64,000 nt of DNA from the sequence record KX009778, one strand, 5' to 3'. This document shows positions 2,212 through 39,730 of this stretch, one piece after another; the first letter of the stretch is position 1, and each line of letters opens with the position of its first letter. Made by a program: the position numbers and the translations under genes. The notes beneath the pieces were generated by a model. It ran no database searches and was not told the origin of the DNA. It saw only the letters and a list, made by a program, of their open reading frames with translations. Origin of the DNA: Escherichia phage UFV-AREG1.

Positions 2212-2229
2212 AAAGGGCCGAAGCCCTTT
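2212..2229 (-). terminator. Hairpin terminator after a-gt
   Basis: AAGGGC-cgaa-GCCCTT stem-loop overlapping stop codon, T-rich flank. Confidence 0.55.
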
Positions 2230-3430
2230 ATTTTGTAATAATGTCAAACTGTTCTTTAAAGCAGAAGCTTGAATCTTGATGCTGATACAAAAATTCATAT
2301 GCTTTTTCTCGCTCATGATCATAAAGAGCTCGGTCAGATGACAGTTCTTTAATACGTTCAAATGTTGATTCCATATCATTTTCATCAAACCAAATGATAC
2401 CGCTATCATGCGAGGTCAAAGGAGTATTATCAACACGGAATTTTAAATTTTCGCCAGTAGATTTCCAAAATACTGGAATTGTTCCACACGCGCCAAGCTC
2501 GAGATGAGTATATTCTAAAGAACGTTGTAGATATTTTTTGTCCAACTTACTCAGCTGATAACCAAATCCGGATTTACTCATGCGTTCAAGCATTTCGCTA
2601 TTTACATAACGGTCAAGAATTTGCGTTGGCAAATTAGGAGCAATTTTAATTTGGTCTACTTGATGAAGACGATAATACTCGTATGGAATTCCTTTTTCTT
2701 TAATAGGAATGAACGCTGGAGAACGTTCCAGACCTTCCATAATAGTACTTAGTCCTGCAGGTTTAAGATGTTTTTCGTGAAAATCAAACATCTGATAAAA
2801 ACCTTTCCATGTAGTCGTACGACCAATCCAACGGTTGATATTCATGTTAATTTCAGAAACATCTTTCCAGTAGGTTGACCGAACCTTCGCAATATCCATA
2901 GGAGGCTGAAAGTTATATACTGTCGGTGCTTCTTCAATATCATCAAACAGAGAAACAGTTTCTGGATACCACTCTTTCATCAGAACTTTATTAAAATCAC
3001 CATTATCAGAATGGCTAAAAATAACATCAGCTCGACGAACAGTTTCTTCTAATCCCAAATTTCGACGCAAAGAAAGAGAAGAATGGTCATGTTGATAAAC
3101 TACAACACGAACAGAAGGTTTAATGTTATCAATAATTTTTTTATAGTTATTAATAGTGTCTTCTTCAACCGAAGTAGCAGGAACTGAATTGATAATTAGA
3201 ATATCACAATCATTTACCAGCTTAAGTGTTTTATCATATTCTTTTGCCAATAAAACCGGAATTGAAAATGATTTATAATCATGCGCGCAGTTACGAGTAA
3301 ATGATTTATCTTTAGCATAAACCAAAGTTACTTCATGACCATTTTTAATAAACCAATCACGCTGCTCAAGAGAAAATTTAGTTACACCGCAACCTTCAAG
3401 ACCTCGAGCCATAAAAATACATACTTTCAT
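2228..3430 (-). CDS. a-gt: DNA alpha-glucosyltransferase
   Basis: 400-aa ORF MKVCIFMARGLEGCGVTKFSLEQRDWFIKNGHEVTLVYAKDK; near-identical to recalled T4 alpha-gt N-terminus and same length. Confidence 0.9.
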   Translation of the reverse strand: MKVCIFMARGLEGCGVTKFSLEQRDWFIKNGHEVTLVYAKDKSFTRNCAHDYKSFSIPVLLAKEYDKTLKLVNDCDILIINSVPATSVEEDTINNYKKIIDNIKPSVRVVVYQHDHSSLSLRRNLGLEETVRRADVIFSHSDNGDFNKVLMKEWYPETVSLFDDIEEAPTVYNFQPPMDIAKVRSTYWKDVSEINMNINRWIGRTTTWKGFYQMFDFHEKHLKPAGLSTIMEGLERSPAFIPIKEKGIPYEYYRLHQVDQIKIAPNLPTQILDRYVNSEMLERMSKSGFGYQLSKLDKKYLQRSLEYTHLELGACGTIPVFWKSTGENLKFRVDNTPLTSHDSGIIWFDENDMESTFERIKELSSDRALYDHEREKAYEFLYQHQDSSFCFKEQFDIITK

Positions 3431-6067: not shown

Positions 6068-6199
6068 TTAAATTTTCCAGTTACCATTTTCATCAATAAA
6101 TTTAATCCAGTCATTTACTGACCACTTAGTTGTATCACCTTTTGGAGTAACATTTAAAGTGTATAACCCCTGCTTAAAAAGCATTCGTTTGATATTCAT
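6068..6199 (-). CDS. hypothetical small protein
   Basis: ORF 6068..6283 trimmed to internal Met (MNIKRMLFKQ) to avoid overlap. Confidence 0.35.
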   Translation of the reverse strand: MNIKRMLFKQGLYTLNVTPKGDTTKWSVNDWIKFIDENGNWKI

Positions 6200-6206
6200 A
6201 TTTTCC

Positions 6207-6500
6207 TCAGCTGTAACGATAACACTCGTTTGATTTACGTTTAGCAACTCGTTGAGAAGTATTATAATCAAAATCATCGTCAATGTAAACTGATTTTTTC
6301 AACTTTCTTACTTCACCGCGTAATTGACGATTTAGCTCATCTTTAACTTCTGAATCAATACCTTTCATTCTACGCCATTTATCTGAGCGAAAAATGTTTT
6401 CAACCATATCTTTATGACTTACACCATCAGGAGCTTTACGCTTTCCGAAATAGTCATAATCACGTACTTTTAAATCTTTACGACGATACGTTTTACCCAT
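6207..6500 (-). CDS. hypothetical basic protein (97 aa)
   Basis: ORF 6207..6545 trimmed to ATG at 6500 (MGKTYRRKDLK). Confidence 0.5.
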   Translation of the reverse strand: MGKTYRRKDLKVRDYDYFGKRKAPDGVSHKDMVENIFRSDKWRRMKGIDSEVKDELNRQLRGEVRKLKKSVYIDDDFDYNTSQRVAKRKSNECYRYS

Positions 6501-30010: not shown

Positions 30011-30484
30011 TTATTTGAATGATTTAACGTACTGAATAGAACCTTTACTATTCACAAAGGCAATTTTACCATTTTTGTTATACATGGTAGCAGTACGCTG
30101 ATAGCCATAAGTTTGTTTACCAGATTGATAACCAACTAATGCGAAATTATCTTCACCCATTTTATTCTGTTTAGCGCGAATACGTTCATGGCCATGTGCC
30201 ATAAGAACCTTAGCATCACCAGTTGCAATGGATCGACGAGTTTTTTCATCTTCAACTGTATTAACAAAATCGTCAAATGAATCAAATTTAGCATGAGATT
30301 TATTATACAGTTTTCCATCTACTGCATAATTATATCCTTGTACATCCATCTCAACTTCTGTACCATCATCCAATACAGCAGTGATTTTCTGACCTTTTTT
30401 AAATTTCAAAAGATCAGTAAAAGATTCAGCAATAATTTGAGAATTAATAGCTGCTTCAGTGATAAATTCTTGATATGTTTTCAT
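30011..30484 (-). CDS. Head internal protein candidate with capsid-targeting sequence (ipIII position)
   Basis: N-terminus MKTYQEFITEA matches T4 internal-protein CTS cleaved by prohead protease; located just downstream of e on the minus strand as in T4; body unlike recalled T4 IPIII. Confidence 0.7.
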   Translation of the reverse strand: MKTYQEFITEAAINSQIIAESFTDLLKFKKGQKITAVLDDGTEVEMDVQGYNYAVDGKLYNKSHAKFDSFDDFVNTVEDEKTRRSIATGDAKVLMAHGHERIRAKQNKMGEDNFALVGYQSGKQTYGYQRTATMYNKNGKIAFVNSKGSIQYVKSFK

Positions 30485-35122: not shown

Positions 35123-35677
35123 TTACCGGTAGCGACCCGGTTTCTCATTTGGTATTTCAAATTGTGTAGATTTAGTATCTAATTTTTTAACTATGGAACT
35201 TATGTCATGAAAGAAAAACCATTCGCCATTTATATGGTCCTGATTATAAATGCTGTGCATATATTTTTCAAGTTCTACTGCATCCTGGGAATATCTAAAT
35301 GATACTATTTTAAAACTTTTAAACGGTGAAAATGTATTTGCTGTTATAACTCTAACATCAGGTTCTATACTTCTTCCTATTTTATAATAATTAGGATTTG
35401 TAGTATCTACCATTATGTATACGAAAGCCTGTCGATAGCTTTTTTCTATATCAAATTCATCTTTAAATTTCAAAAGATTTAGGGCGGCAGTCCTACAAAA
35501 TACTTTCCATTTTGACAAGCGTTTAGCTTTAGTCATAGAAAAGAATTTTTTCTTATCTGTTATTTTAAGAAAAGCAACATTTTCAATTAGTTCTTGTGTT
35601 ATTTCAAAATTACCATGGTATATTAATCCAGCTTTTATAGCCAAATTAATTTGGTCCCAGTCTACATCACTTCTCAT
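35123..35677 (-). CDS. T5orf172/GIY-YIG-like domain protein inside the RNA gene cluster
   Basis: 184-aa ORF; VYIMVDTTNPNYYKIGRSIEPDVR resembles GIY-YIG-related T5orf172 signature. Confidence 0.55.
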   Translation of the reverse strand: MRSDVDWDQINLAIKAGLIYHGNFEITQELIENVAFLKITDKKKFFSMTKAKRLSKWKVFCRTAALNLLKFKDEFDIEKSYRQAFVYIMVDTTNPNYYKIGRSIEPDVRVITANTFSPFKSFKIVSFRYSQDAVELEKYMHSIYNQDHINGEWFFFHDISSIVKKLDTKSTQFEIPNEKPGRYR

Positions 35678-35698: not shown

Positions 35699-35775
35699 TG
35701 GCCAGGGTGAAAGGATTCTAACCTTTAACCTGCGGTTTAGAGGACCGCTACTCTATACAATTGAGTTACACCCCG
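35699..35775 (-). tRNA. tRNA-Arg (anticodon UCU), CCA encoded
   Basis: Hand-folded cloverleaf: acceptor CGGGGTG/CACCCTG, D-stem ACTC/GAGT, anticodon stem GCGGT/ACCGC with loop CCUCUAA, T-arm AAAGG-TTAGAAT-CCTTT; position 33 is C, which is atypical. Confidence 0.6.
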
Positions 35776-35901
35776 TAATTAGTTCACAGCAATACCTACT
35801 CCAACAATCAAGATGTCTTCACACGAAATTAAGAGAAAAGTGATCAGTTCAACCCTTATAATCGCGTCAAGTAGATATTAATGTGACAACTGTCACAAGT
35901 T

Positions 35902-35976
35902 TGGCGGACATGCATGGATTCGAACCATGGACCAATTGATTAACAGTCAACTGCTCTACCACTGAGCTACACATCC
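35902..35976 (-). tRNA. tRNA-Asn (anticodon GUU), CCA encoded
   Basis: Hand-folded: GGATGTG acceptor, TAGCTCAGTGGTAGAGC D-arm, anticodon loop CUGUUAA, T-loop GGTTCGAATCC. Confidence 0.7.
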
Positions 35977-35980
35977 AAAT

Positions 35981-36067
35981 TGGTGGGGAGTGATGGAGTC
36001 GAACCACCCGAGTCGCAATGACAATGGATTTACAGTCCACACCGCTACCTCTACGGGATAACTCCCC
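35981..36067 (-). tRNA. tRNA-Tyr (anticodon GUA), long variable arm, CCA encoded
   Basis: Hand-folded: anticodon arm GTGGA-CUGUAAA-TCCAT, 87 nt with long variable arm typical of bacterial tRNA-Tyr. Confidence 0.65.
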
Positions 36068-36076
36068 AAATTAATT

Positions 36077-36153
36077 TGGTGACCCAGACCAGATTTGAAC
36101 TGGTAACCTTTCCCTTATGAGGGGACTGCTGCTAACCATTGAGCTACAGGGCC
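36077..36153 (-). tRNA. tRNA with CAU anticodon (Ile2 or Met), CCA encoded
   Basis: Hand-folded: acceptor GGCCCTG, anticodon loop CUCAUAA, T-arm ACCAG-TTCAAAT-CTGGT. Confidence 0.65.
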
Positions 36154-36154
36154 T

Positions 36155-36230
36155 TGGTGCTGATTGACGGAATCGAACCGCCGACATCCTCATTACAAGT
36201 GAGGTGCTCTACCTACTGAGCTAAATCAGC
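36155..36230 (-). tRNA. tRNA-Thr (anticodon UGU), CCA encoded
   Basis: Minus strand GCTGATTTAGCTCAGTAGGTAGAGCACCTCACTTGTAATGAGG...GGTTCGATTCC...CACCA; matches recalled T4 tRNA-Thr. Confidence 0.85.
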
Positions 36231-36232
36231 AA

Positions 36233-36319
36233 CGGAGGCGATAGGATTTGAACCTATGAGTCGCCGGAGCGACTGCCGGTTTTCAAGACCGGTGCATTAA
36301 ACCACTCTGCCACGCCTCC
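36233..36319 (-). tRNA. tRNA-Ser (anticodon UGA), type II, CCA not encoded
   Basis: Hand-folded: acceptor GGAGGCG, anticodon arm CCGGT-CUUGAAA-ACCGG, long variable arm, T-loop GGTTCAAATCC. Confidence 0.8.
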
Positions 36320-36321
36320 AG

Positions 36322-36395
36322 TCTCCATACAAGGATTTGAACCTTGGACCTCCTGATCCCAAATCAGGCGCTCTACCAAACTGAGCTACACGGAG
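36322..36395 (-). tRNA. tRNA-Pro (anticodon UGG), CCA not encoded
   Basis: Hand-folded: CTCCGTG acceptor, D-arm TAGCTCAGTTTGGTAGAGC, anticodon loop UUUGGGA, T-loop GGTTCAAATCC. Confidence 0.8.
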
Positions 36396-36405
36396 TAAAT
36401 TAAAT

Positions 36406-36479
<74 letters not shown>

Positions 36480-36485
36480 AAACTT

Positions 36486-36572
36486 TGGTACGAGAAGTGG
36501 GACTCGAACCCACAAGGAAATCATTCCGCAGCATTTTAAGTGCTGTGCCTTTACCAATTTGACCATTCTCGC
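36486..36572 (-). tRNA. tRNA-Leu (anticodon UAA), type II, CCA encoded
   Basis: Hand-folded: GCGAGAA acceptor, anticodon arm CAGCA-CUUAAAA-TGCTG, long variable arm, T-loop GGGTTCGAGTCCC. Confidence 0.8.
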
Positions 36573-36573
36573 G

Positions 36574-36646
36574 CTGGGAATAAAGGACTCGAACCTTTGC
36601 ATCTAGCAGTCAAAGTGCTATGCCTTACCAACTTGGCTAATTCCCA
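36574..36646 (-). tRNA. tRNA-Gln (anticodon UUG), CCA not encoded
   Basis: Hand-folded: TGGGAAT/ATTCCCA acceptor, anticodon arm TAGCA-CUUUGAC-TGCTA, T-loop AAAGGTTCGAGTCCTTT; abuts tRNA-Leu with 1-nt spacer. Confidence 0.8.
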
Positions 36647-36743: not shown

Positions 36744-37031
36744 TTACCATTTATGATAATACATATTTACAATGCATTCAAGACCTAAAGGATTCTTGAA
36801 AATATCATATTCAAGAGGACCTTTTTCTGTTTCAATAAAGAAATCAAAATTTACTGTATTAAATTTACGGTCTTCCTTCACTAATTTAACTTGAGAAGAT
36901 GAACGGTCAACATAAACCTTTTCAACTTCAAAACATGTTAAAATGCCATAATCATCGATCAAGGCTTTAGCTGCTTCTTGATCATATTTATATCCATTTT
37001 CAATTGACGATACTTTAGCATAAAGAATCAT
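36744..37031 (-). CDS. hypothetical protein (95 aa)
   Basis: ORF track. Confidence 0.55.
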   Translation of the reverse strand: MILYAKVSSIENGYKYDQEAAKALIDDYGILTCFEVEKVYVDRSSSQVKLVKEDRKFNTVNFDFFIETEKGPLEYDIFKNPLGLECIVNMYYHKW

Positions 37032-37033
37032 TA

Positions 37034-37423
37034 TCAGCCTTCATCAACAATAGTATGAGTGTGGGCATTTACAATTTGCCACCAATCAAAGCGATTATAA
37101 CCATACATCGGTTTGTTTTCATTTTCTTTGATAATATCACGGAGTTCATCTTCGGTAGCGGCTTTCGCGATTAAATCAGCATATCCACCACGAGGATAAT
37201 AATTATCACCTGCAAAAAGTAAAAAGTTCGGTTTAATATTATTGAACTCTTCAAGAGTAATAACTTTTCCTGTCGGTTGAACAATCTCTACATATTTATA
37301 TCCTAATTTTTGAGCAGCATCTACTGCTTCAAGCAAAGTATCATGAGCCCATCCAATTTGACAACCTGGCTTTTCAGATGGATTAGCCTGATAATCCGCG
37401 TACACTTTATACATTCTATTCAC
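37034..37423 (-). CDS. hypothetical protein (129 aa)
   Basis: ORF track. Confidence 0.6.
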   Translation of the reverse strand: MNRMYKVYADYQANPSEKPGCQIGWAHDTLLEAVDAAQKLGYKYVEIVQPTGKVITLEEFNNIKPNFLLFAGDNYYPRGGYADLIAKAATEDELRDIIKENENKPMYGYNRFDWWQIVNAHTHTIVDEG

Positions 37424-37601
37424 CTTTAGAAATTTTATCCATAACGATAGCGATTAAACCAATTAAAAATGCTACTACAAGTGAAAACACATTTTCTGCT
37501 GTAGTTAATAATCCGCATATAAATCCAGCAAACATTGAAAAACTAAAAGCAGAAGCAGAAATTGCAATAGCAACATTTCGAATTAATTCACAACGTTTCA
37601 T
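37416..37601 (-). CDS. small membrane protein
   Basis: ORF 37416..37670 trimmed to Met MKRCELIRN downstream of early promoter; hydrophobic helices. Confidence 0.5.
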   Translation of the reverse strand: MKRCELIRNVAIAISASAFSFSMFAGFICGLLTTAENVFSLVVAFLIGLIAIVMDKISKGE

Positions 37602-37629
37602 TTTATTCTCCTCAGTAGTTGATAGGGTA

Positions 37630-37659
37630 ATAGTATCACTACTAAAACCCAATGTAAAC
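37630..37659 (-). promoter_or_regulatory. Early promoter-stem-loop unit (IP locus)
   Basis: GTTTAC-18nt-TACTAT; -10 lies in loop of inverted repeat GTAGT/ACTAC. Confidence 0.6.
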
Positions 37660-37662
37660 AAT

Positions 37663-37887
37663 TTATTCAACGCCAGCGGCTTTCAAAAGTTTTTTAAGAT
37701 TGGCAACACCTTGAGCAGAAAATGTGACCTTGCCACCTTTTTCACTGATAGAACCAACCAATTTAGCAAGTTTATCATTAGGAATTTTTTTAAAATCAGC
37801 CAATGTTCCATCAAAGGTTTTTGAAACAAAAGGCAGTTCGTCTTCGCGTCTTTTAGCTTCTACAATAAATTCTTGATATGTTTTCAT
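37663..37887 (-). CDS. Head internal protein candidate with CTS (74 aa)
   Basis: N-terminus MKTYQEFIVEA; own early promoter-stem-loop upstream. Confidence 0.65.
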   Translation of the reverse strand: MKTYQEFIVEAKRREDELPFVSKTFDGTLADFKKIPNDKLAKLVGSISEKGGKVTFSAQGVANLKKLLKAAGVE

Positions 37888-37915
37888 TTTATTCTCCTCA
37901 GTAGTTGATAGGGTA

Positions 37916-37945
37916 ATAGTATCACTACCCCATCTAAAAGTAAAC
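37916..37945 (-). promoter_or_regulatory. Early promoter-stem-loop unit (IP locus)
   Basis: GTTTAC-18nt-TACTAT with flanking inverted repeat. Confidence 0.6.
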
Positions 37946-37955
37946 GGTTTATAAA

Positions 37956-38264
37956 CTATTTTATTCCGCGTGATGCAATTGTGTTCTGCCGTTTAACGCC
38001 AGTTTGTTTAAAGTCATGATTGTCGATTTGATCGGTACGAGCAACTCCGAATGATGATTTGATCTTAGCTTTAGATCCTTTAGTTATAGAAATAAACATC
38101 TCGGAAGCCCCTTTCTTAAAGTCCGAAGCGATTACTTCAACGCCGTTCTTAGCAAGTGACTTCAGAATTGCCTCTGCATACTCATCGTCAAGACTCGTCT
38201 GAGTATTAATAACGAATGTCTTTGGCGCAGCCGCTTCATTGATAAATTCTTTGAAAGTTTTCAT
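37956..38264 (-). CDS. Head internal protein candidate with CTS (102 aa)
   Basis: N-terminus MKTFKEFINEA; own early promoter-stem-loop upstream. Confidence 0.65.
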   Translation of the reverse strand: MKTFKEFINEAAAPKTFVINTQTSLDDEYAEAILKSLAKNGVEVIASDFKKGASEMFISITKGSKAKIKSSFGVARTDQIDNHDFKQTGVKRQNTIASRGIK

Positions 38265-38294
38265 TTTATTTTCCTAATTAAGTTTGATGAGATA

Positions 38295-38324
38295 ATAGTA
38301 TCACAACCCTATTTAAAAGTAAAC
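38295..38324 (-). promoter_or_regulatory. Early promoter-stem-loop unit (IP locus)
   Basis: GTTTAC-18nt-TACTAT. Confidence 0.6.
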
Positions 38325-38597
38325 TCATTTTAAATAAATTGCGTATTTTTTATAACCCGCTGACTCATGACGAAGACCCTTATCATTAGCAAAACGCTCA
38401 ATGTTGTTAATTTGATTCTGGTCAAGTTCAGAGATGTCAAACACGAAAAAGTTACGTTTGTTACCAACTGTTACATAGTCAGTTAAATCAATATCATATA
38501 GGTAATTGATGTCAGCAATCAAAGTCTTGACAGCTTTGCTAATTTTTACTTTTTCGTTAAAAGTAGCTTCATTGATAAATTCTTGATATGTTTTCAT
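38325..38597 (-). CDS. Head internal protein candidate with CTS (90 aa)
   Basis: N-terminus MKTYQEFINEA; own early promoter-stem-loop upstream. Confidence 0.65.
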   Translation of the reverse strand: MKTYQEFINEATFNEKVKISKAVKTLIADINYLYDIDLTDYVTVGNKRNFFVFDISELDQNQINNIERFANDKGLRHESAGYKKYAIYLK

Positions 38598-38624
38598 TTT
38601 ATTCTCCTCAGTAGTTGATAGGGT

Positions 38625-38655
38625 AATAATATCACAACTAAAACCCTATGTAAAT
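38625..38655 (-). promoter_or_regulatory. Early promoter-stem-loop unit (IP locus), variant
   Basis: ATTTAC then TATTAT-like -10; same leader as neighbours. Confidence 0.5.
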
Positions 38656-38673
38656 AACTTTGTGAAAAATTTA

Positions 38674-38961
38674 TTACAAAAGATTTTTAGCAATAATCTT
38701 GAGATGTGCCGCAGAAATGTGTTTAGCTTTAAACAACGCAGTTTCTTCAGCAGGAGAGATAACGATTGTAGCACCATCCTTTTTAGCAGACCACCCATCG
38801 CCTAGGTAAACAGTACCTTTGATTTCTTCGCCATCAACCAGACTAATCATTGGTTTACCTTCTCGTCCTTTATTTGCTTTAATAACTTCAGAAGTAAGAG
38901 TAGCTTCGGTAATAGTAGAAACCGGGGTAGTTGTAGAAGTAAATTCTTTGAAAGTTTTCAT
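38674..38961 (-). CDS. Head internal protein candidate with CTS (95 aa), at the position of T4 ipI
   Basis: N-terminus MKTFKEFTS...ITEA; immediately upstream of 57B as ipI is in T4; same length as pre-IPI but body not recognised as T4 IPI. Confidence 0.6.
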   Translation of the reverse strand: MKTFKEFTSTTTPVSTITEATLTSEVIKANKGREGKPMISLVDGEEIKGTVYLGDGWSAKKDGATIVISPAEETALFKAKHISAAHLKIIAKNLL

Positions 38962-38991
38962 TTTATTTTCCTAATTAATTTTGATGAGGTA

Positions 38992-39021
38992 ATAGTATCA
39001 CTACCTCATCAGTATGTAAAC
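38992..39021 (-). promoter_or_regulatory. Early promoter-stem-loop unit (IP locus)
   Basis: GTTTAC-18nt-TACTAT; -10 lies between 10-bp inverted repeat TGATGAGGTA/TACCTCATCA. Confidence 0.6.
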
Positions 39022-39033
39022 AACTTTGTGAAA

Positions 39034-39730
<697 letters not shown>

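Follow-up and report, generated by a model that had tools for sequence, protein, structure and literature searches.

Four internal-protein genes with capsid-targeting leaders at the variable ipI locus of a T4-like coliphage

The window, the whole 64-kb stretch of DNA that was analysed, belongs to a T4-like coliphage of the genus Tequatrovirus, whose DNA carries glucosyl-hmC. Tequatrovirus genomes give the best 20-kb match, at 97%. The region described here is the ipI hyperplastic locus of this phage. According to the ORF map, the order on the minus strand is 57B - ipI - ip9 - ip7 - ip8 - trna.4. The features are listed below in the direction of transcription, with the capsid-targeting sequence (CTS) given where it is ten residues long (↓, predicted cleavage site).

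39034..39489, minus strand: 57B, Acb1 family (Pfam PF23474 Acb1, 7.3e-60; 98% DNA identity to T4 57B)
38962..39033, minus strand: class-A unit upstream of ipI (-35 TTTACA at 39020-39015; -10 TACTAT at 38997-38992 with TG; SD AGGAAA)
38674..38961, minus strand: ipI, internal protein I precursor, 95 aa (ORF, identity to T4 IPI)
38598..38673, minus strand: class-B unit upstream of ip9 (-35 TTTACA at 38654-38649; -10 TATTAT to 38626; SD GAGGAG)
38325..38597, minus strand: ip9, 90 aa (CTS MKTYQEFINE↓A; mature protein 80 aa, pI 8.2)
38265..38324, minus strand: hybrid unit upstream of ip7 (-35 TTTACT at 38323-38318; -10 TACTAT at 38300-38295; SD AGGAAA)
37956..38264, minus strand: ip7, 102 aa (CTS MKTFKEFINE↓A; mature protein 92 aa, pI 9.7)
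37888..37955, minus strand: class-B unit upstream of ip8 (-35 TTTACT at 37944-37939; -10 TACTAT at 37921-37916; SD GAGGAG)
37663..37887, minus strand: ip8, 74 aa (CTS MKTYQEFIVE↓A; mature protein 64 aa, pI 9.8)
37602..37662, minus strand: class-B unit upstream of trna.4 (TTTACA-17-TACTAT with TG; reference copy of repeat family D1)
37416..37601, minus strand: trna.4, 61-aa hydrophobic protein without CTS (phrog_1692, 5e-35, full length)

The array is the variable "internal protein" (IP) locus of a T4-like coliphage, real but ordinary. Its upstream boundary is the conserved gene 57B and its downstream boundary the conserved gene trna.4, which shares 97% DNA identity with T4 trna.4. T4-type internal proteins are encoded at two loci, 57B-trna.4 and the denV-e region; the four genes lie at the former, between two flanking genes that are 97-98% identical to those of T4.

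As the first-pass annotation had proposed, four consecutive minus-strand ORFs of 74, 102, 90 and 95 aa carry a CTS, at the coordinates given above. ipI starts with MKTFKEFTSTTTPVSTITE↓A and the other three with the leaders listed. All four share the T4 capsid-targeting sequence MKT(Y/F)(Q/K)EF..E↓A. The pattern MK[TS][YFW][QKE][EKD]F was searched in six frames over the whole 64 kb. It gave five matches, every one of them at the start of an ORF: ipI, ip9, ip7, ip8 and a fifth at 30011-30484, which corresponds to the second IP locus. Chance is not a credible explanation for the motif. In all four proteins, residues 8-10 or 17-19 form the (L/I)-x-E motif recognized by the gp21 prohead protease, as INE↓A in two of them, IVE↓A in one and ITE↓A in one. 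Beyond the leader, no two of the mature bodies are related, in agreement with the first-pass annotation: all blastp pairs have E > 0.01 outside the leader, and alignment of the Ip7 and Ip9 profiles is restricted to 19 leader columns. That ipI, ip9, ip7 and ip8 of the 57B-ipI-trna.4 locus are internal-protein genes with a CTS is therefore supported.

The 95-aa protein had not been recognized as T4 IPI, which proved wrong. It is identical to T4 IPI over 95/95 residues, and in it a 19-aa CTS/propeptide precedes the 76-aa IPI*. The latter, residues 20-95, has the sequence of chain A of PDB 2JUB (76/76), and the whole protein matches Pfam PF11634 IPI_T4 (7.3e-54) and phrog_4363, internal virion protein. 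Pfam and pairwise comparison showed no PF11634 or IPI similarity in the 90-, 102- and 74-aa ORFs. In T4, the same protein is encoded at the same site, directly downstream of 57B and behind the same promoter/stem-loop. There, as had been stated, ipI is the sole IP gene of the locus and trna.4 comes next, whereas here three extra IP cassettes lie between the two.

These three genes, initially left as unrecognized proteins, are the named genes ip9, ip7 and ip8 of phage RB15 (GenBank Z35082; Repoila et al. 1994, EMBO J 13:4181). Identity to the RB15 proteins is 94-99% over the full length: 85/90 residues for Ip9 (CAA84463), 101/102 for Ip7 (CAA84464) and 72/74 for Ip8 (CAA84465). The best PHROG matches are phrog_7673 (internal head protein, 4e-55), phrog_2667 (internal head protein, 5e-41) and phrog_8765 (internal virion protein, 2e-25), respectively. 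Names such as "Ip7 protein" and "Ip9" are found among the sources in the protein databases, and Ip7 homologues are called Ip7 or internal head protein. Each family comprises 106-289 phage records, with Ip8 occurring in 106, and spans phages of Escherichia, Klebsiella, Salmonella and Citrobacter. Family alignments contain 44-46 invariant columns out of 90-102.

Pfam gave no hit above threshold for Ip7, Ip8 or Ip9, a PADLOC scan gave nothing meaningful, and pairwise comparison showed no similarity of the three mature bodies to IPI*, IPII or IPIII. For Ip7 and Ip9, the homologue search, of a depth too shallow for remote homology, returned nothing beyond close relatives in T4-like phages. The AF2 model of Ip9 (pLDDT 78) has no PDB match at E < 1e-3 in Foldseek. 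That of Ip7 (pLDDT 69) is predicted as a generic ferredoxin-like alpha/beta sandwich; it likewise has no PDB match at E < 1e-3 and shows weak likeness to generic ferredoxin-like ACT/RRM domains. With models of moderate confidence and no informative match, we draw no conclusion on function from the fold.

Upstream of each of the four genes, the promoter scan identified TTTAC(A/T)-17 nt-TA(C/T)TAT with a TG upstream of the -10 element. In the units, an inverted repeat flanks the -10. The view that each gene has its own promoter and its own stem-loop thus holds in full for the promoter, while the stem-loop is found in three of the four units and is missing for ip7. The ipI unit, of repeat family D2, contains the hairpin GATGAGGTAGTG/ATACTATTACCTCATC at 39011-38982 (-17.4 kcal/mol, z = -4.6). 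The two class-B units upstream of ip9 and ip8 belong to family D1. The former has an interrupted hairpin at 38649-38618 (-11.4 kcal/mol) and the latter the hairpin GATGGGGTAGTG/ATACTATTACCCTATC at 37934-37907 (-16.1 kcal/mol, z = -4.1). The unit upstream of trna.4 is a fifth copy, with a hairpin of -11.7 kcal/mol. In the ip7 unit, the left arm ATAGGGT is of class B and the right arm ATCTCATC of class A, and because of this mismatch no stable hairpin is formed; the fold (-5.1 kcal/mol, z = +0.4) is no better than those of shuffled sequences. Hybrid arms occur at every ip9-ip7 junction examined, in the window, RB15, EP01/KIT06, ECO07P1 and VEc74. In L023, where ip7 directly follows 57B, a complete class-A hairpin is kept. 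More generally, across 54 unique upstream regions the cassettes carry differing but complementary arms around the -10.

The hairpins were also considered as intrinsic terminators and rejected: no U-runs follow them and the terminator scan is empty at their positions. An Rfam search over 33.5-39.6 kb returned ten tRNAs only, with no RNA family for the hairpins.

These units recall the promoter-early stem-loop (PeSL) mobile regulatory cassettes (Arbiol et al. 2010; Comeau et al. 2014) of RB49/phi1-type phages. There, as here, an early promoter and a stem-loop flank small accessory genes, and the elements coincide with indel and replacement joints. PeSLs are homologous copies that combine a sigma-70-like early promoter with a strong G/C-stemmed stem-loop. 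The units of the array are not members of this family because their promoters are of T4 early type, their stems are AT-rich, their arms are variable and one of the four is degenerate. They agree with the description by Arbiol et al. (2010) of the T-even IP-associated elements as analogues, not homologues, of PeSLs, with T4 early promoters and weaker AT-rich stems without polyG/polyC.

The same units mark the joints of the cassettes. T4 DNA aligns to positions 39581-38592 of the window at 98% and picks up again at 37664-37412 at 97%. In T4, 70 nt of the spacer between ipI and trna.4 match both window copies, and therefore ip9-ip7-ip8 is a 996-bp insertion relative to T4 with direct repeats (D1) at its ends. 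The left boundary repeat is the unit upstream of ip9 and the right one that upstream of trna.4, so that the insertion sits exactly between two copies of the promoter/stem-loop/SD/ATG unit.

RB15 carries ip5-ip9-ip7-ip8. Its ip9, ip7 and ip8 genes are in the same order as here, with 95% DNA identity over 1109 bp, and both phages share the junction sequences, the hybrid unit between ip9 and ip7 among them. The first cassette differs, ip5 in RB15 and ipI here, and the swap point is in the promoter/stem-loop unit upstream of ip9. Other arrays read ip5-ip9-ip7-ip8 (VEc74) and ip9-ip7-ip8 (ECO07P1), and in KIT06 (OQ349392) the ip8 position holds just a 129-nt CDS. The idea that the four-gene array is unique to this phage was rejected, as EP01 (OM135583) has the same 57B-ipI-ip9-ip7-ip8-trna.4 array with 95% DNA identity over 2185 bp. 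Its CDSs of 95, 90, 102, 74 and 60 aa are annotated merely as hypothetical proteins; downstream, EP01 lacks trna.3. Later papers trace the description of polymorphic IP loci, of their common leader and of the promoter/stem-loop-like junctions back to Repoila et al. (1994). On that attribution, expanded and diversified arrays of this kind have been known since 1994. The locus, the genes, the leader and the junctions are all published, as is the anti-defense hypothesis, and the same array is in GenBank (EP01); the observation is already known.

The DNA repeat extends into the first ~30 coding nucleotides of the ip genes. Hence the shared N-terminus might be viewed as a by-product of a recombination module, the products being ordinary early proteins that stay in the cytoplasm and are left unpackaged, and the use of the promoter/SD unit by trna.4, which is not an IP gene, would fit such a view. 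However, trna.4 matches the repeat unit up to ATGAAA only and lacks the leader, so the module does not impose it. Moreover, the proteins retain the CTS residues and I-x-E↓A whether their DNA is of the class-A or the class-B variant, and ten CTS residues suffice for packaging of foreign proteins in T4 (review). We regard unpackaged products as very improbable.

Packaging in the head is the reading we favor. Packaging, gp21 cleavage and ejection are established for T4 IPI and IPIII; for the proteins of the array we infer them from identical or near-identical leaders, and for IPI from identity of the whole sequence to T4 IPI. As read from the sequence, an ip cassette opens with a T4-early-type promoter whose -10 lies between the arms of an inverted repeat; an SD, a CTS-coding leader of ~30 nt and an unrelated body follow. 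The CTS would bring the protein into the prohead scaffolding core, where gp21 would cleave behind the Glu residue of I-x-E. Small and basic once mature, the proteins would remain with the packaged DNA and be ejected along with it. T4 IPI* acts as an inhibitor of GmrSD of the CT596 type, a type IV restriction enzyme. The role of an injected type IV inhibitor, which the first-pass annotation had named, is established for T4 IPI*, and the identical protein encoded here would block the same type of enzyme. The window encodes DNA alpha-glucosyltransferase, which makes its DNA a GmrSD substrate. Ip9, Ip7 and Ip8 would most likely be further host-strain-specific injected inhibitors of immediate-early defenses. 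The cassette joints themselves are observed; the repeated 65-100-nt regulatory-plus-leader units would provide the homology for insertion, deletion and swapping of cassettes between co-infecting phages. Taken as a whole, this scheme of packaged and injected CTS cassettes, with IPI* acting against GmrSD and cassettes exchanged by recombination, is in our view very probably correct.

An anti-restriction or anti-defense role, as had been suggested for the array, is the standard view of such proteins in the literature. T4 Ip1, Ip2 and Ip3 inhibit one GmrSD each, a different one in every case; for Ip2 and Ip3 these are GmrSD-ECOR21 and GmrSD-ECOR17 (Silas et al. 2025). Ip2 and Ip3, from the second IP locus of T4, have the 10-aa CTS MKTYQEFI.E and the promoter-plus-hairpin upstream architecture seen here. 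They are small to medium, basic and injected, and their mature parts lack sequence similarity to the array proteins. Their targets are established, in contrast to those of the predicted inhibitors Ip7, Ip8 and Ip9, for which the GmrSD-inhibitor analogy is unproven. Plating against defined restriction systems, proposed as a check of this role, is already published in part: in a 2025 screen of ip4-10 against eight active GmrSD systems, none was reproducibly inhibited, and apparent hits of ip7 with CLS_011 and of ip8 with CLS_018/019 were not reproducible. A literature search for the function of Ip7 found nothing. RB15, which has ip5, ip9, ip7 and ip8 but no IPI, was reported not to be restricted by the CT596 GmrSD (Table 3); this escape could reflect differences in DNA modification instead of an Ip.

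The screen would also agree with injected anti-defense proteins that have targets other than GmrSD, perhaps other nucleases or abortive-infection sensors acting as the DNA enters. None of the three bodies is related to IPI*, IPII or IPIII, and the array adjoins another counter-defense gene, 57B/Acb1. On the other hand, all three T4 Ips with known targets act on GmrSD enzymes, the GmrSD family is so diverse that the tested panel is far from exhaustive, and positive evidence for any other target is lacking. It is possible, although rather unlikely, that Ip7, Ip8 and/or Ip9 have such targets. The corresponding view of the array, as a general "first-minute" anti-defense toolkit co-injected with the DNA and not a set of anti-GmrSD variants, is equally tentative.

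The mature proteins of the array are all small and basic (pI 8.2-9.8), and ~1000 IP molecules are packed with the DNA in T4. Together with the lack of a target for Ip7, Ip8 and Ip9 in the literature, this might suggest interchangeable basic counter-ions or packing proteins of the DNA, whose diversity would be drift in dispensable genes without any arms race. Yet the strong conservation within the families fits selected specific folds and not mere charge, and Ip1-3 turned out to be specific inhibitors. A simple packing role is thus unlikely, and we continue to favor specific injected inhibitors. The Ip7, Ip8 and Ip9 families occur widely among T4-like phages of Escherichia, Klebsiella and Salmonella, with phage-therapy isolates among them, and their targets, once found, could help explain host range.

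The array sequence does not account for the way synthesis is timed to prohead assembly. No copy of the T4 late promoter TATAAATA occurs within the array. The only two matches to TATAAATA lie outside it, at 36985-36992 and 37293-37300, inside trna.2 and trna.3.

The window is part of the genome of a T4-like coliphage of the genus Tequatrovirus. The 20-kb stretch around the internal protein (IP) array is 96-97% identical to many Tequatrovirus genomes and exactly matches none. The four minus-strand ORFs are located precisely where the first-pass annotation had placed them, in the following setting (slashes mark the predicted cut by the prohead protease gp21):

39034-39489, minus strand: 57B, directly upstream of the array (Pfam Acb1 PF23474, 7e-60)
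38674-38961, minus strand: ipI, 95 aa, N-terminus MKTFKEFTSTTTPVSTITE/A
38325-38597, minus strand: ip9, 90 aa, N-terminus MKTYQEFINE/A
37956-38264, minus strand: ip7, 102 aa, N-terminus MKTFKEFINE/A
37663-37887, minus strand: ip8, 74 aa, N-terminus MKTYQEFIVE/A
37416-37601, minus strand: trna.4, downstream flank (phrog_1692), with trna.3, trna.2 and the tRNA cluster beyond it
30011-30484, minus strand: fifth ORF with a capsid-targeting sequence (CTS), 157 aa, MKTYQEFITE/A (Pfam DUF7412, 5.7e-96)

When all six frames of the window were scanned for the CTS leader motif, MK[TS][YFW][QKE][EKD]F, five matches appeared, all at ORF starts: the four array ORFs and the 157-aa ORF. 57B belongs to the Acb1 anti-CBASS family in Pfam, so that two kinds of counter-defence gene are adjacent here. 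The ORF list also holds an 84-aa TTG-started ORF (37416-37670, minus strand) overlapping trna.4. Comparison with its homologues, T4 trna.4 and phrog_1692, puts the true start of trna.4 at the ATG at 37601 (61 aa), which is preceded by the class-B SD.

The 95-aa protein is, by its sequence, T4 IPI. It is identical to the T4 IPI precursor at 95/95 positions, its residues 20-95 are identical to 2JUB, the solved structure of mature IPI (IPI*), and it matches Pfam IPI_T4 (7e-54). The initial reading, which recognised none of the four as T4 IPI, was therefore wrong for this gene. The other three correspond in sequence to Ip9, Ip7 and Ip8 as deposited for phage RB15 (GenBank Z35082), with 85/90, 101/102 and 72/74 identical residues, respectively, and the same gene order. 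In PHROG, all four proteins fall into families annotated as internal head protein or internal virion protein. Their mature bodies are indeed unrelated to each other: pairwise blastp among the four, and against T4 IPII, T4 IPIII and RB15 Ip5, found no similarity outside the leader (all E > 0.01), and the alignment of the Ip7 and Ip9 profiles is confined to 19 leader columns. After cleavage the proteins would be 64-92 aa long and basic (pI 8.2-9.8). Structure prediction added little for Ip7 (a small beta-alpha-beta-beta-alpha sandwich, pLDDT 69) and Ip9 (a small alpha/beta domain, pLDDT 78); a PDB search gave a significant match for neither model.

T4 has, as first noted, a single ipI at this locus, in the order 57B-ipI-trna.4-trna.3-trna.2-tRNAs. 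Homology to T4 runs at 98% as far as the ATGAAA of ip9 and picks up again, at 97%, with the unit that precedes trna.4; the single T4 spacer between ipI and trna.4 matches both copies in the window. Thus, ip9-ip7-ip8 is a 996-bp insertion relative to T4, with direct repeats of the class-B unit at both ends. The repeated units may mediate cassette exchange through homologous recombination.

Such a unit of about 60-75 nt precedes each ip gene and also trna.4. It consists of a promoter (TTTAC(A/T), a 17-nt spacer and TA(C/T)TAT with an upstream TG), an inverted repeat placing the -10 inside its loop or stem, and an SD; the DNA repeat extends into the leader-coding nucleotides. Two classes are observed. 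Class-A units (ipI, ip7) have a right arm ..CTCATC, the SD AGGAAA and the leader MKTFKEF. Class-B units (ip9, ip8, trna.4) have the right arm ACCCTATC and the SD GAGGAG, with the leader MKTYQEF in Ip9 and Ip8.

38598-38673, minus strand: class-B unit, SD GAGGAG
38265-38324, minus strand: ip7 unit, hybrid of class-B left arm and class-A right arm
37888-37955, minus strand: class-B unit, SD GAGGAG
37602-37662, minus strand: class-B unit, SD GAGGAG

The proposal that each gene has its own promoter-stem-loop stands for the promoter in all four ip genes, and for the stem-loop in ipI (-17.4 kcal/mol), ip9 (-11.4) and ip8 (-16.1); the trna.4 hairpin has -11.7. The ip7 unit does not fold (only -5.1 kcal/mol, z = +0.4), because its arms belong to different classes. 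The hybrid arms are of identical type at every ip9-ip7 junction examined, and a full class-A hairpin is present in an IMG/VR locus (L023) where ip7 directly follows 57B. The hybrid is probably the trace of a crossover within the conserved -10 loop. The arms come in several distinct sequences among the 54 unique regions compared upstream of leader-bearing genes, all of them self-complementary around the -10, which suggests that the hairpin itself is maintained. Upstream of an ip7-like gene in another IMG/VR locus (UViG_2706796299, L015 about 6170-6250), GATACTATTACCTCATCAA, corresponding to the -10 plus right arm, is tandemly duplicated, another sign of rearrangement within these units. The class-B SD, GAGGAG, contains GGAG, the site that the T4 endoribonuclease RegB prefers; class A has AGGAAA as its SD instead. 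Decay of the mRNA might thus not be the same for the two classes.

Searches of 50,697 phage records with the mature parts found IPI in 289, Ip7 in 282, Ip9 in 192 and Ip8 in 106, all T4-like phages of Escherichia, Klebsiella, Salmonella, Shigella, Citrobacter or Enterobacter. Of 802 records with matches, just 3 span 80% or more of the 1.7-kb array, which makes the combination uncommon, though not unique. EP01 has the same array (ipI-ip9-ip7-ip8-trna.4). So does KIT06 (OQ349392), but with only a 129-nt annotated CDS at the ip8 position (L002 3714-3842); ip8 is probably disrupted there. KIT06 and the window share 95% DNA identity across the array. RB15 and VEc74 carry ip5-ip9-ip7-ip8, where the window has ipI first, and ECO07P1 carries ip9-ip7-ip8. 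Among 24 IMG/VR loci retrieved by way of 57B, the number of leader-bearing ORFs at the ipI locus ranges from zero to about three, and their families vary.

The ipI-ip9-ip7-ip8 feature is already known, in kind and in exact composition. Arbiol et al., citing Repoila et al. (1994, EMBO J 13:4181), mention more than 30 IP variants. They describe the IP-locus elements as analogues, not homologues, of promoter-early stem-loop cassettes (PeSLs), with T4 early promoters and weaker AT-rich stems. Comeau et al. (2014) bring up an earlier hypothesis, in which reshuffling of the IP palette could alter the host range. Regarding packaging, work on IPIII summarised in a review showed the first 10 residues to be sufficient, residues 4 and 7 mattering for targeting and 8 and 10 for processing. 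The conserved leader of the array proteins carries an I-x-E/A site. By identity with the established case, IPI would be packaged by means of its leader, processed by gp21 and ejected with the DNA, and would block CT596-type GmrSD, a type IV restriction enzyme. Ip9, Ip7 and Ip8 may take the same packaging route and may inhibit early-acting defences in a host-specific way. The window encodes a DNA alpha-glucosyltransferase, so that its DNA should be glucosyl-hmC, the substrate of GmrSD enzymes.

2228-3430, minus strand: DNA alpha-glucosyltransferase, 400 aa (PF11440, 1.8e-237)

The first-pass annotation holds as an observation and only partly as an interpretation. The targets of Ip7, Ip8 and Ip9 are an already recognised question, partly addressed by experiment. 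Ip1, Ip2 and Ip3 are inhibitors, each with its own GmrSD type IV enzyme as target; with ip4-10 and further GmrSD variants, apparent ip7/CLS_011 and ip8/CLS_018/019 interactions (CLS, GmrSD clusters) were not reproducible (Silas et al. 2025). RB15, without IPI* but with ip5/9/7/8, is listed as unrestricted by CT596 GmrSD (He et al. 2015), which is compatible with, though not proof of, an alternative inhibitor.

The second IP locus, which holds ipII and ipIII in T4, here consists of a single gene, the 157-aa CTS-bearing ORF, next to the lysozyme gene e. This ORF has its own promoter plus hairpin, resembling that of T4 ipIII. The tRNA cluster has ten genes, compared with eight in T4. segB is absent between tRNA-Arg and the other tRNAs, where only a 126-nt gap is found (35776-35901), and an ORF with a GIY-YIG-like domain lies downstream of the cluster.

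35699-36646, minus strand: tRNA cluster (Arg, Asn, Tyr, Met, Thr, Ser, Pro, Gly, Leu, Gln)
35123-35677, minus strand: ORF downstream of the tRNA cluster, 184 aa, T5orf172/MUG113 domain
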